The notes under the pieces were generated by a model, which was not told the DNA's origin, searched no databases, and worked only from the letters and a program-made list of their open reading frames with translations. From contig CAJBNH010000072.1 in assembly GCA_903955385.1 (NCBI GenBank), positions 40,063 through 104,062 of the forward strand: 64,000 bases of DNA. The letters are read 5' to 3'. Below are positions 35,386 through 38,046 of the stretch, one piece after another. Within the stretch, counting starts at the first letter, position 1. Each line of letters begins with the position of its first letter. This DNA comes from an uncultured Myxococcales bacterium. GTDB lineage: Bacteria; Myxococcota_A; UBA9042. The position numbers and the translations under genes were made by a program.

Positions 35386-35655
35386 CTACTTCAAAGCCGC
35401 CTTCATGCGCGCCAAAAGCGGCGAAGCCTCGTCGTCCAACCCAAAGCTCCGCCCCGCCTCCTTGAACGCCACGGTCCCGGCCGTCGCCTCCAACCCATGC
35501 TTGCCGAAAGCCTTCTCCTGAATCGCCATCGGCAGCGCGATCATCTTGGCCACGTCGCCCGCCGCCTTGGCCGCCGCCATGTTGGCCTTGAACGTCGGGT
35601 CCTCGAAGCCCTCTACGATGGTCTGGAGGATGTCGAGAAACGTTGCCTTGTCCAT
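35386..35655 (-). CDS. 89-aa helical protein resembling eukaryotic protein C10 (C12orf57)
   Basis: GAGGAG RBS inside the last codons of the upstream ATPase and strong codon bias. By-eye match to recalled C10 motifs. Confidence 0.6.
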   Translation of the reverse strand: MDKATFLDILQTIVEGFEDPTFKANMAAAKAAGDVAKMIALPMAIQEKAFGKHGLEATAGTVAFKEAGRSFGLDDEASPLLARMKAALK

Positions 35656-35658
35656 GGG

Positions 35659-38046
35659 TTACTCCTCTACGTAAGTGCGGACCACGCGTCCCTGATCCTT
35701 GTATTCGCGGTCGCCGGCTTTCGACAGCAGCGGATACGAGATCGGCCCGCCCTCCGATGCCGCCCACACCGCCGCGCGGATGACGGCGTTCTGGATCTGG
35801 CCGCCCGTCAGCTCGTAGTCCAGCGCAAGGTCGCGGAACCTCAAGTCAGCTTCGCGTGGGGCGTCGGCGGGGACCATCACGCGCCACAGTCGCTCGCGCT
35901 CGTCGACTTCGGGCGGCGGGAAGTGGGGCTTGAAGCGGATACGGCGCATGAAGGCTTGATCGATCGATTCGGGGTTGTTGGTCGTCAGGATCACCAAACC
36001 GTCAAAGTCTTCCAGGCGTTGCAGCAGGTAGTTGACCTCGAGGTTGGCATAGCGGTCGACCGACGACTGCACGTCGGTGCGCTTGGCGAACAGCGAATCG
36101 GCCTCGTCGAACAGCAGCGCGATGCCTGAGTCCTGGCTCGCGTCGAACAGCTTGGACAGCCGCTCCTCGGTCTCGCCGATGTACTTCGACACGACCGAAG
36201 CCAGGTCCACGCGGAACAATTCCAGGCCCAGATCGCGCGCCACCAGACCCGCACACAGCGTCTTGCCGGTGCCCGAGGGGCCAGAGAACAGCGACGTCAG
36301 CGCGCGGCCATAGCCCATCGAGCGGCCGTAGCCCTGGTCGTCGAGCACGAACGAAGCGAACTTGCCGAACCGCACCATCTCTTCAAGGATTTCGCGGGTG
36401 TCGTCGGGCAGGACCGTGGTCTCCCAGCGGCCGCGGACGTGGATGCGGGTGGCCAGTCCGGCCAGGCGCGACGACGCCACATCCCGGCAGGATCGCTCCA
36501 GATCCGTCAGGTGCACCGCAGTCGCGTTCGGGTTCCGCTGGCGTGCCGTGGCCGCGGCCAGGTTCACCGCGAGGTCGATCTCGTCGACGCCGAACTTGAA
36601 GACGGCGGCAGAGGCGGCGGCGTCCTCGGCTTCCACGGGTGTCATGCGGTCGGTCAACCGCTCGCGCCACAAGGTCTTTCGCTCTTCCAGCGTCGGCGCG
36701 GCGGTCGGCAGCTCCAGCGCCCCCAGCTCGCGCAGCAGCGCCAGATGCACGCGCGGCGAGAGCCTTTGCCCCTCCTGCCTTGGGCTCGCCGGCGAGTGGA
36801 AGAACATCGTCGTCGTCTCGCCCGACAGCAGCTGCACCAGCGCGGCCAGACGCTCTGCCCCGTGCTCGCCTGCGTCCAGCGACTCACTGTGCTCGAAGAA
36901 AAGCCCTGCGCGCGCCAATCTCGCCCGACCCAGCACGGCCCCGACACGATCCAGCGCGTCGTCGGCCAACAGCAGGTCCAGCCGCACCGTCAGCAGCCCC
37001 TCGCCGAACAGCCGCAGGGCGTCGCGGGCGATGCGGACGGCACCGGCACGCTCGGGGCCCAGCACCAGAAAGCGCCGACGTCCGCGGAATCCTCGCGCCA
37101 GAGCTTCACGCAACGCGGGAGAATGCGGCGAGTCCTTGCCCTGGCCGAGATCCAGCGCGTCGCCCTCTTGCCCGTGCCACAGCACGCCCGGCAAGTCGGC
37201 CAGCGCGACCGGCAGTCCGACCAGATGGCCGCACACGAACCCCGCAGCCCGAAAGCGAATTTGCGTGGTGTCGTCGCCGCCGGCCAGTACCAGACCATAG
37301 CGCCGCAGCGTCGACCGCGACGACAGCGCCTGCAGCACCGCCTTGCCGCGTGCGCCAAACGGGTCGACGGCGTGCGACAGGAAGTCTTCGGGCCAGTGAC
37401 TACGGCCGGTGTCGCGCCACAAGGCACGGTACAGCCACAGGAATTCCGGCACCAGCTCGGGCGCCAGCAGCACCCACAGCAGGTCGCACTCCAGATCCGA
37501 CAGGCCAAAGATGACGCGCAGCTCGTCAAAGCGCTGCGCCGACTCGGTCGTCGGCTGCAGATCGTCGTAAGCGACGGCCAGCCGCTGTTCCATGCGGGCC
37601 ACGAACGCCAGGCGCTCGGGGTCCAGCGCCTCGCCGCGCAGGCAGCGCAGGGCGGTCGAGTCGAGCGTTTGCATCGTCCCCGCCGGCACCGGATTGCGCG
37701 TGGGGTCGTCGACGGGGCGGTCCCAGGGCCGCAGCACCCCCAGGTACCGCTGCAGCATGGCGCGCACACGGTCGAGGTAAGGGGCGAATTCAACGGCGGA
37801 ACCCGACAGCCACGGTCGAGCACCGTCGTCGAGCGGCGGCCCGTCGTCGTCGCGCAGCTCGGCGCGGATCAACTGCCGCAGCACGTCGACCTGCATCTCG
37901 CTCAGGTCGTCGGTGGTGGTCTCGGGGTCGATGCGCGCCTCGAGCAGGATCGCCTTGGCCCGCGCGCGGCTGATGCCGGGCAGGTACGTCAGGGCGGTCT
38001 CGACGGGACGATGCGGCGGAAGTCCTGAAAGTCCGGTGCGTGCCAT
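35659..38046 (-). CDS. uS13-like H2TH domain fused to winged-helix plus tandem AAA+ ATPase (first AAA degenerate; Afp15/Pvc15/SpoVK-like clade)
   Basis: MAR start at 38046. LSDLECDLLWVLLAPEL (WH region), degenerate GPERAG, intact GPSGTGKT (36259-36282), LLFDEAD, DRYANLEVNYLLQRLE, IDQAFMRR. Confidence 0.85.
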   Translation of the reverse strand: MARTGLSGLPPHRPVETALTYLPGISRARAKAILLEARIDPETTTDDLSEMQVDVLRQLIRAELRDDDGPPLDDGARPWLSGSAVEFAPYLDRVRAMLQRYLGVLRPWDRPVDDPTRNPVPAGTMQTLDSTALRCLRGEALDPERLAFVARMEQRLAVAYDDLQPTTESAQRFDELRVIFGLSDLECDLLWVLLAPELVPEFLWLYRALWRDTGRSHWPEDFLSHAVDPFGARGKAVLQALSSRSTLRRYGLVLAGGDDTTQIRFRAAGFVCGHLVGLPVALADLPGVLWHGQEGDALDLGQGKDSPHSPALREALARGFRGRRRFLVLGPERAGAVRIARDALRLFGEGLLTVRLDLLLADDALDRVGAVLGRARLARAGLFFEHSESLDAGEHGAERLAALVQLLSGETTTMFFHSPASPRQEGQRLSPRVHLALLRELGALELPTAAPTLEERKTLWRERLTDRMTPVEAEDAAASAAVFKFGVDEIDLAVNLAAATARQRNPNATAVHLTDLERSCRDVASSRLAGLATRIHVRGRWETTVLPDDTREILEEMVRFGKFASFVLDDQGYGRSMGYGRALTSLFSGPSGTGKTLCAGLVARDLGLELFRVDLASVVSKYIGETEERLSKLFDASQDSGIALLFDEADSLFAKRTDVQSSVDRYANLEVNYLLQRLEDFDGLVILTTNNPESIDQAFMRRIRFKPHFPPPEVDERERLWRVMVPADAPREADLRFRDLALDYELTGGQIQNAVIRAAVWAASEGGPISYPLLSKAGDREYKDQGRVVRTYVEE

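Follow-up and report, generated by a model that had tools for sequence, protein, structure and literature searches.

A predicted uS13-headed AAA+ ATPase of the contractile injection system loader lineage and its C10-like neighbour are core genes in a family of freshwater Myxococcota

Two adjacent genes were studied on the minus strand of a 64,000-nucleotide stretch of DNA (hereafter the window) from an uncultured Myxococcales bacterium (GTDB lineage Myxococcota_A; UBA9042; assembly GCA_903955385.1, contig CAJBNH010000072.1, positions 40,063 to 104,062). The large gene encodes an AAA+ ATPase and the small gene a helical protein that resembles protein C10. Judged from its sequence, the ATPase is a type-II, classic-clade AAA+ protein of the lineage that loads contractile injection systems (CIS), i.e. 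of the Pvc15/Afp15/'Cis15' type, in which the first AAA module (D1) is predicted to be nucleotide-dead. It is highly probable that, at the base of this bacterial family, an unfoldase of the CIS-loader clade gained an N-terminal domain of ribosomal protein uS13 as well as a C10-like neighbour, and that both have been kept as core genes. On the function of the pair we are more tentative. We prefer the reading in which the ATPase is an unfoldase and the C10-like protein its dedicated cofactor or regulator, although we rate it at a little short of an even chance.

Domain structure of the ATPase

The motor of the large protein consists of D1 and a second AAA module (D2). The Pfam AAA profile (PF00004) matches residues 586–708 with an E-value of 6e-26, and D2 contains GPSGTGKT at 589–596, the pore loop KYIG at 621–624, DEAD at 647–650, the sensor-1 residue N690 and R701/R702. 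Every one of these D2 motifs is invariant across 24 orthologues. In D1 the Walker A motif is replaced by GPERAG, which is without the lysine and is likewise invariant in these orthologues. Matches to PDB sequences that run through D2 were VAT, Cdc48 and p97, and by Foldseek D1 plus D2 were aligned over about 540–660 columns to p97/Cdc48, Drg1/AFG2, NVL/Rix7, 55LCC and Msm0858 (E 1e-10 to 1e-11). The identity among orthologues ranges from 59 to 100%, beyond which it falls abruptly to about 40%, in the C-terminal half only.

Residues 163–259 match PF22977, a winged-helix domain (WHD) profile, with 33.7 bits (gathering cut-off 27). Because the same profile matches the Nostoc CIS-locus ATPase with 211 bits, PF22977 can be regarded as the N domain of CIS ATPases. 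Environmental plasmid proteins of Nostoc, Deinococcus, Streptomyces and Cereibacter served as references for this group, and Pvc15 and Afp15 were compared by their published description. In all four plasmid matches of which the context was inspected (Nostoc pn3, Deinococcus aquaticus, Streptomyces WZ-12 and Cereibacter p2) the protein was the terminal 'ATP-binding protein' of an annotated CIS locus with gp25, baseplate, VgrG-related, phage-tail and DUF4157 genes. D2 is 40–48% identical to that of the CIS-locus ATPases. In a maximum-likelihood tree of D2 the WHD-type ATPases, these four references included, formed a clade (support 99/95) on a long branch from FtsH, the Cdc48-like protein and other AAA proteins of the genome. 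The Myxococcota copies formed a clade of their own (97/97), and the S13-headed proteins (100/98) were nested among head-less Myxococcota copies, the basal order within the WHD-type clade being unresolved in this tree. Pvc15 has been described as having a winged-helix-like N domain, a D1 without catalytic residues, and a D2 with GTGK, DEAD, KY, N and RR (PMC11495950). The sister ATPases, which are head-less, start at a point corresponding to residue ~81, and their matches to PF22977 set in with the first positions of the profile. Those examined had neither an S13 head nor a C10 gene, and they were followed by a gene for an OmpA-like protein of 462 residues, for a protein of 1231 residues or for a second AAA protein. 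Head-less sisters with such differing downstream genes fit a general pattern of an orphan ATPase plus a private partner.

The N-terminal head appears from its sequence to be a true homologue of the uS13 N domain. Ribosomal_S13 (PF00416) matches residues 9–63 of the ATPase with 28.3 bits, TIGR03631 matches the head with an E-value of 2.3e-7, and it is found by each of the S13 models (Pfam, TIGR bacterial, TIGR archaeal). When the whole genome was scanned with the Pfam S13 model, two places only were matched: the genuine rpsM, situated on contig C8 (107 bits), and the first 60 codons of the ATPase gene (31.4 bits). The scan was extended to 61 related genomes, of which 37 belong to the GTDB family of the window (14 genera) and 24 to other families of the class. 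In 32 genomes of the family there was a second match, which lay at the 5' end of the gene for the S13-ATPase. The 24 genomes from outside the family yielded rpsM only, save for one weak extra match of 21.8 bits. Residues 1–57 of E. coli uS13 and of the ATPase align without a gap, with 23 of 57 positions identical (40%; E 3e-12). As this alignment is gapless from residue 1, the fusion keeps collinearity from the initiator Met. The match spans profile positions 7–61 of 128 with 24–33 bits, and the basic C-terminal tail is absent; full-length uS13 was defined by a Pfam whole-protein score of at least 31 bits over the profile, and the head falls short of this. The G-h-G hairpin of uS13 reads G-[IV]-S in the head, with Ser in place of the second glycine. 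The head was modelled as a three-helix fold of the helix-two-turn-helix (H2TH) type (helices 15–19, 27–37 and 50–64) with a pLDDT (predicted local distance difference test) score of 83–89, and it is conserved like the motor, with 18 invariant positions within residues 10–57.

Comparison with the RpsM of the same genome was less informative: tblastn of the head against the genome missed rpsM, blastp against RpsM gave no match, and an alignment by eye was gapless with about 15 of 60 positions identical. Pairwise BLAST with the own RpsM being insufficient, the homology is demonstrated by the searches with profiles and by the alignment to E. coli uS13. A search of 5.8 billion protein clusters seeded on residues 1–110 returned 45 orthologue clusters only and no other architecture. 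We conclude that residues 1–62 of uS13 were joined to the N terminus of the ATPase in the family ancestor, on a flexible acidic linker. An earlier note on this DNA, made from the letters alone, had pointed out the likeness of the head to uS13, had described D1 as degenerate and D2 as intact, and had referred to a winged-helix AAA clade that includes Afp15 and Pvc15. The profile scans, the orthologue alignment and the D2 tree with its four CIS-locus references bear out these statements.

The C10-like small protein

Protein C10 (PF14974) is known in human as C12orf57 or GRCC10 and underlies Temtamy syndrome. By AF2 the small protein of the pair was modelled as a five-helix bundle (pLDDT 95) that is folded from residue 3 to 88, with ends that are not disordered. 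The P_C10 profile (PF14974) matches it with 18.1 bits, which is below the gathering cut-off of 27. Weak matches over almost the full length were obtained for 9 of 28 orthologues (best E 7e-4), and the consensus sequence gave no match to PF14974. A profile of the orthologues, run against 1.84 billion representative sequences, found 25 matches only, among which P0121, P0123, P0117, P0114 and P0116 pass PF14974 at 83, 40, 39, 36 and 31 bits, respectively. Human C12orf57 has been described as a five-helix bundle (PMC13478489), and human C10 is reported to be a small protein that binds and regulates CAMK4 (PMC11838199). The reciprocal profile relationship together with the published description of the fold makes it very likely that the small protein is a remote homologue of the C10 family, so the resemblance to C10 that had been remarked on earlier seems to reflect genuine homology. 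Seventeen residues are invariant among the orthologues. Fold searches with the model against the PDB and the viral BFVD yielded nothing below E 1, and the sequence profile found no relative in the PDB.

The nearest C10-like protein outside the family is P0119, which is 31% identical over its full length and which, when searched back within Myxococcota, recovers proteins of the family (f1) only. Its gene lies 74 nt upstream of, and in the same direction as, a gene for an eCIS core protein (PF13699, 45 bits; Logan SRR13262724 contig, 1508–3294), a link that is given by one contig only. A metagenome scan with P0119 found nothing. A further distant homologue, P0118 (GCA_026004615.1, 6001–7162), matches P_C10 with 26.3 bits and EAD1 with 19.6 bits; its gene is situated 4 nt upstream of a cyclase-family gene (PF04199), between thiG/Rce1-like genes and corA. 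In P0106 (3527 residues) and P0112 (700 residues) the C10-like profile finds 14 and 7 separate stretches, respectively, and neither protein passes PF14974. They may be arrays of C10-like helix repeats or low-complexity artefacts. The idea of a homotypic adaptor, in which a domain of the small protein would recur inside the ATPase in an EAD-like manner, was rejected, as hhalign of the two families gave a probability of 0.5%; the weak EAD1 match is confined to P0118.

Distribution, junction and synteny

The small gene was found in 34 of the 37 family genomes. The three genomes without it are 83, 67 and 61% complete and are also without the S13-ATPase. It was absent from all 24 genomes of other families of the class, and when 401 Myxococcota genomes (255 genera) were scanned with a profile, it was detected in 28 of 29 genomes of the family and in none of the 372 others. 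The family genomes are metagenome-assembled genomes from freshwater lakes (Baikal, Mendota, Erken and similar sites). In 29 of the 34 carriers the small gene lies directly downstream of the ATPase gene on the same strand, and in three more the split between the two genes coincides exactly with contig ends and their positions would allow adjacency. The conserved two-gene pairing that had been proposed from the window is thus found by the neighbourhood survey. Independent occurrence is marginal: it amounts to one species without the ATPase, and to distant C10-like genes without an ATPase neighbour. Genome G014 contains two complete pairs on the short contigs C101 and C91 and a partial third C10-like copy (residues 26–88) on C45; these extra copies possibly reflect strain heterogeneity or duplication.

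At the junction of the pair the minus strand reads GAG GAG TAA CCC ATG. The last two codons of the ATPase form the Shine-Dalgarno sequence (GAGGAG) of the small gene, the spacer between stop and start is 3 nt, and this arrangement is unchanged in both other genomes of the genus. The earlier note had read this junction correctly and had taken the two genes to be translationally coupled. For the genus of the window this holds. As a general feature it does not, since the gap ranges from 1 nt to about 170 nt among the relatives, each small gene has a Shine-Dalgarno sequence of its own and the orientation is inverted in one genus. The 3-nt gap is genus-specific, and gaps of 1–12 nt occur in several genera.

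The gene order in the family is lolE, a gene for a Big_5 lipoprotein of 577 residues, serA (purA in one genus), the ATPase gene, the small gene, about 5 kb of further DNA, and mpl. In five relatives that were fetched serA lies directly upstream in the same direction as the pair; it is inverted in the genus of the window. In 11–12 of 14 relatives the pair is followed co-directionally by genes for a PEGA-like protein of about 500 residues and a MopE-type Cys-rich protein of about 1100 residues. No orthologue of either was present anywhere in the assembly of the window's genus, where a DUF4160 gene, a nucleotidyltransferase gene and a RAYT gene occupy their slot. The description of the pair as a self-contained unit, which had been drawn from the window, therefore does not extend to the family. 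As the pair is constant while both flanks change, it is to be regarded as core and the patch rich in toxin-antitoxin (TA) genes and repetitive extragenic palindromic (REP) sequences as a local replacement. Mean corrected distances were 0.39 for the ATPase and 0.37 for Mpl; the small protein evolves faster (0.62). The pair is single-copy, vertically inherited, core chromosomal and not accessory. The proposal that it sits in an accessory patch, in a position befitting stress or defence, has to be given up in view of this inheritance and synteny, of an ATPase rate like that of Mpl and of the generic outcome of a PADLOC search, in which the ATPase gave AAA-core matches only (IetA and TRIP13 models) and the small protein none.

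CIS genes elsewhere in the genome

The only CIS locus of the genome is situated on contig C173 at 23.5–43 kb and contains Pvc16_N, two sheath, gp19 tube, CIS_tube-LysM, gp25 and P2_I genes. No AAA gene is present on this 82-kb contig. The S13-ATPase gene lies on contig C72 between serA and mpl, and is one of two WHD-AAA genes in the genome. The other, at C24:138080–140344(-), encodes a paralogue of 754 residues with an intact D1 Walker A motif (GPPGVGKS), which is a candidate loader of the CIS; to judge from the matches listed, much of the family seems to have kept this type of paralogue. Of the eCIS_core (DUF4157) genes there are three, located on C57, C118 and C172, one of them in a frame of 4647 codons. 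Pvc16_N loci are single-copy in 33 of the 37 family genomes and, among the matches listed, are never on the same contig as the ATPase. Since CIS parts are dispersed throughout the lineage, distance alone does not speak against a role of the ATPase in trans. Genome G017 keeps CIS sheath genes though it is without the S13-ATPase, and G038 has 13 WHD-AAA genes and neither a sheath gene nor Pvc16_N.

What the pair may do

In the reading that we prefer, the ATPase would probably assemble as a hexamer, the N-terminal modules of which would recruit substrates. The small protein would bind the ATPase in its N-terminal region (S13 head or WHD), as an adaptor or a regulator, and would select the substrates that D2 threads and unfolds, or control their entry. 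For its action the module would not depend on the CIS gene cluster that lies elsewhere in the genome. A role as cofactor is suggested by the tight and long-lived linkage despite changing flanks, by the origin of both genes at the same node and their strong conservation, by the predicted compact and leaderless fold in which residues 3–88 are ordered, by the small gene having persisted without harm in G017, where the ATPase was lost, and, by analogy, by the report of human C10 as a regulator (PMC11838199). We infer that the small protein acts neither as a toxin or antitoxin nor as a cargo with a leader.

Several observations weigh against a dedicated partnership, and some of them would equally suit two genes that are mere neighbours, with a C10-like protein that has its own function and an adjacency due to inherited synteny or shared transcription. 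In G017 (94% complete; C33:8000–13000) purA is followed by an intact small gene and the S13-ATPase is nowhere in the genome; sister species of its genus have the order purA, ATPase, small gene, and the missing gene measures 2.4 kb. Either the gene was deleted in nature or its absence is an artefact of assembly. In G008 (C51, small gene at 9837–10094) the small gene adjoins the ATPase gene in inverted, convergent orientation, so the adjacency has outlived a local inversion and co-translation is ruled out there. The contexts of the distant homologues P0118, P0104, P0120 and P0119 contain no ATPase neighbour; these genes adjoin a cyclase gene, an eCIS_core gene or unrelated genes. Together G017, G008 and the ATPase-less distant homologues imply that the small protein may function independently. 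Moreover, the functional unit could exceed two genes, given the two co-directional envelope or secreted-protein genes that follow in most genera, and the AlphaFold model of the ATPase is of moderate quality (pLDDT 70), good for the S13 head, the WHD and D1 and poor for D2. The whole region being syntenic, adjacency alone is weak evidence inside one family. However, the flanks vary (serA or purA upstream, PEGA/MopE or TA/RAYT genes downstream) while the pair persists, both genes arise at the same node and are missing from the 372 other Myxococcota genomes, and the gaps are short in several genera. The pairwise distances of the ATPase and the small protein also correlate when Mpl is controlled for (partial r 0.45, permutation p ~5e-4), a mirror-tree correlation that is suggestive only and weak evidence because partial Mantel tests are liberal. 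We consider mere neighbourhood quite improbable. A module for anti-phage defence, stress or TA function is highly improbable. The pair does adjoin DUF4160, nucleotidyltransferase and RAYT genes in the window's genus, and its AAA domain gives generic matches of the IetA/IteA type, but these comprise the AAA core only (NCBIfam IteA 80 bits against a cut-off of 510), and the TA/RAYT patch is a genus-specific substitute for the PEGA and MopE genes beside a single-copy, vertically inherited, core-syntenic pair with a slowly evolving ATPase. That the ATPase neutralizes a toxic small protein is excluded by G017, in which the ATPase is lost and the small gene kept.

The membership of the ATPase in the CIS-loader clade leads to another explanation, namely that it serves the CIS of C173 in trans, with the C10-like protein as cargo adaptor or as a small cargo itself. 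The lack of an AAA gene beside that locus, the similarly scattered eCIS_core genes of cargo type, the Pvc16_N locus in most family genomes and the position of the P0119 gene upstream of an eCIS_core gene are in its favour. Yet the C24 paralogue with its intact D1 is an equally good or better candidate loader, G017 retains its sheaths after losing the S13-ATPase, the many WHD-AAA genes of G038 occur without sheath or Pvc16_N, the P0119 link is a single contig, and the S13 head is left unexplained. In addition, the small protein is without the disordered N-terminal leader of the kind found in cargo of the Photorhabdus virulence cassette (PVC; PMC11495950). A role in trans seems unlikely, if still the most serious of the alternatives. 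The head itself would be accounted for if the ATPase were a remodeller of the ribosome or another ribonucleoprotein (RNP), in which the uS13-like head docks the hexamer on a partner of uS13, for example immature 30S head rRNA (h41/h42), uS19, or uL5 at bridge B1b, and D2 extracts a factor or remodels it, the C10-like protein being the cofactor that confers specificity. The homology of the head to the uS13 N domain, collinear from Met1, its motor-like conservation at 18 invariant positions and the presence of the eukaryotic ribosome-biogenesis factors Drg1/AFG2, Rix7/NVL and 55LCC among the closest tandem AAA folds agree with this, as does the precedent of Drg1, which recognizes Rlp24, a look-alike of a ribosomal protein. 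On the other hand, the conserved neighbourhood is without ribosomal or translation genes, the head lacks the C-terminal tail of uS13 and has Ser for the second glycine of the hairpin, and the Foldseek likeness is generic to type-II AAA proteins. H2TH domains, moreover, also bind DNA or act as plain protein modules. We regard a ribosomal or RNP function as quite unlikely. Combining the two, an unfoldase of CIS-loader type may have been re-targeted to the ribosome or an RNP through a captured uS13 docking mimic and a C10-like specificity cofactor, and by extension the C10 family would in its ancestral role have served a large enzyme machine as a small adaptor or regulator; this combination is improbable.

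Features and neighbouring genes

The coordinates of the pair are collected in Table 1. The ATPase of 795 residues starts with MARTGLSGLPP. A longer, TTG-initiated frame given by the open reading frame (ORF) finder was rejected, as 20 of the 24 aligned orthologues share the downstream Met. The small protein counts 89 residues.

Table 1. Features of the gene pair and its downstream edge; positions are those of the window.
Feature	Position	Strand	Basis
Predicted AAA+ ATPase with S13 head, WHD, D1 and D2; coding sequence, stop included	35659..38046	-	Orthologues 59–100% identical, one family
Predicted uS13 N-terminal (H2TH) domain homologue, residues 1–62	37861..38046	-	PF00416, TIGR03631, E. coli uS13 alignment, model
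Acidic, variable, low-confidence linker, residues 63–80	37807..37860	-	Variable columns; pLDDT <50 at 66–81
PF22977-type winged-helix N domain, residues ~81–260	37267..37806	-	PF22977 33.7 bits on 163–259
D1, degenerate AAA module, GPERAG, residues ~323–530	36457..37080	-	Orthologue alignment; Foldseek D1+D2
D2, predicted active classic AAA module, residues ~545–795	35662..36414	-	PF00004 E 6e-26; invariant motifs; PDB matches
Junction GAGGAG-TAA-CCC-ATG	35653..35667	-	Sequence; same in two congeneric genomes
C10-like five-helix protein of 89 residues (predicted); coding sequence, stop included	35386..35655	-	AF2 pLDDT 95; P_C10 link
REP-like imperfect hairpin of the Y1-transposase element, ~70 nt beyond the small-gene stop; outside the module, downstream edge in the genus	35287..35318	.	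Read by eye; left-end twin 34732–34763

A serA-type dehydrogenase gene at 38228–39190(+) is divergent from the ATPase gene. On the side of the small gene that faces mpl, the region 32805–35290 contains a DUF4160 gene, a gene for a Polbeta-type nucleotidyltransferase and an IS200-like Y1 transposase gene (Y1_Tnp; 34838–35290(+)) with REP-like hairpins, which is convergent with the small gene; the assignment of this transposase to the RAYT type was made in the earlier note. The same stretch has a possible DUF2442-like ORF without a Pfam match and a lipoprotein-like ORF of 227 residues. Further away, at 21186–22571, the window encodes a MopE-type Cys-rich repeat protein that is 33% identical to the repeat region of the protein of 1116 residues that follows the pair elsewhere. 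It is a repeat-level paralogue and not an orthologue.

Significance

In the library of papers searched there was no mention of PF22977, of a bacterial C10 or of an S13-AAA fusion. The results describe the domestication of an unfoldase of CIS-loader type as a core, family-wide chromosomal gene with a ribosomal-protein domain, in a fusion that was seen nowhere else among the protein clusters searched. They also give the first conserved prokaryotic gene context for the C10 family, of which the human member C12orf57 is barely known biochemically, and this context suggests the idea that C10-type proteins serve larger machines as small cofactors. The genes of the CIS machine, the loader-type ATPases and the eCIS-core genes of cargo type all lie scattered in this lineage, so that a lack of CIS genes nearby does not by itself separate CIS-linked from emancipated ATPases. 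The hosts are uncultured lake Myxococcota, and what is said here on function is inferred.

Comparison with known systems

All of the features listed for Pvc15 (PMC11495950) recur in the S13-headed ATPase, which in this respect resembles Pvc15, Afp15 and Alg15 ('Cis15'). It differs from the terminal ATPases of CIS in being encoded outside a CIS locus, in a conserved housekeeping neighbourhood, in its extra uS13-like head, which is present in no other member, and in having as its neighbour a leaderless helical protein instead of an effector with an N-terminal signal. With the orphan WHD-AAA ATPases of Myxococcota it shares the start point of the N domain, and each of these has a downstream gene of its own. 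Only the S13 orthogroup, however, combines a head with a C10-like partner, and, in contrast to many orphans, its gene is core and single-copy throughout the family. p97/Cdc48, Drg1/AFG2 and NVL/Rix7 with their cofactors may serve as an analogy, since they too are tandem D1-D2 classic AAA proteins in which small cofactors act in recruitment through the N domain. The S13-ATPase is not a member of this group: it has another N domain, a dead D1 and a branch apart from the Cdc48-like protein of its own genome.

The small protein is similar in size to protein C10 and is predicted to be a five-helix bundle, the likeness in fold being by description only. It is bacterial, occurs in a different genomic setting and scores below the Pfam gathering cut-off, and the partners reported for C10 in eukaryotes are CAMK4 and ANKRD50, not an AAA+ ATPase. 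Finally, compared with RpsM (uS13), the head of the ATPase appears to keep the N-terminal H2TH domain without the basic tail, and a normal rpsM has been kept elsewhere in the genome.

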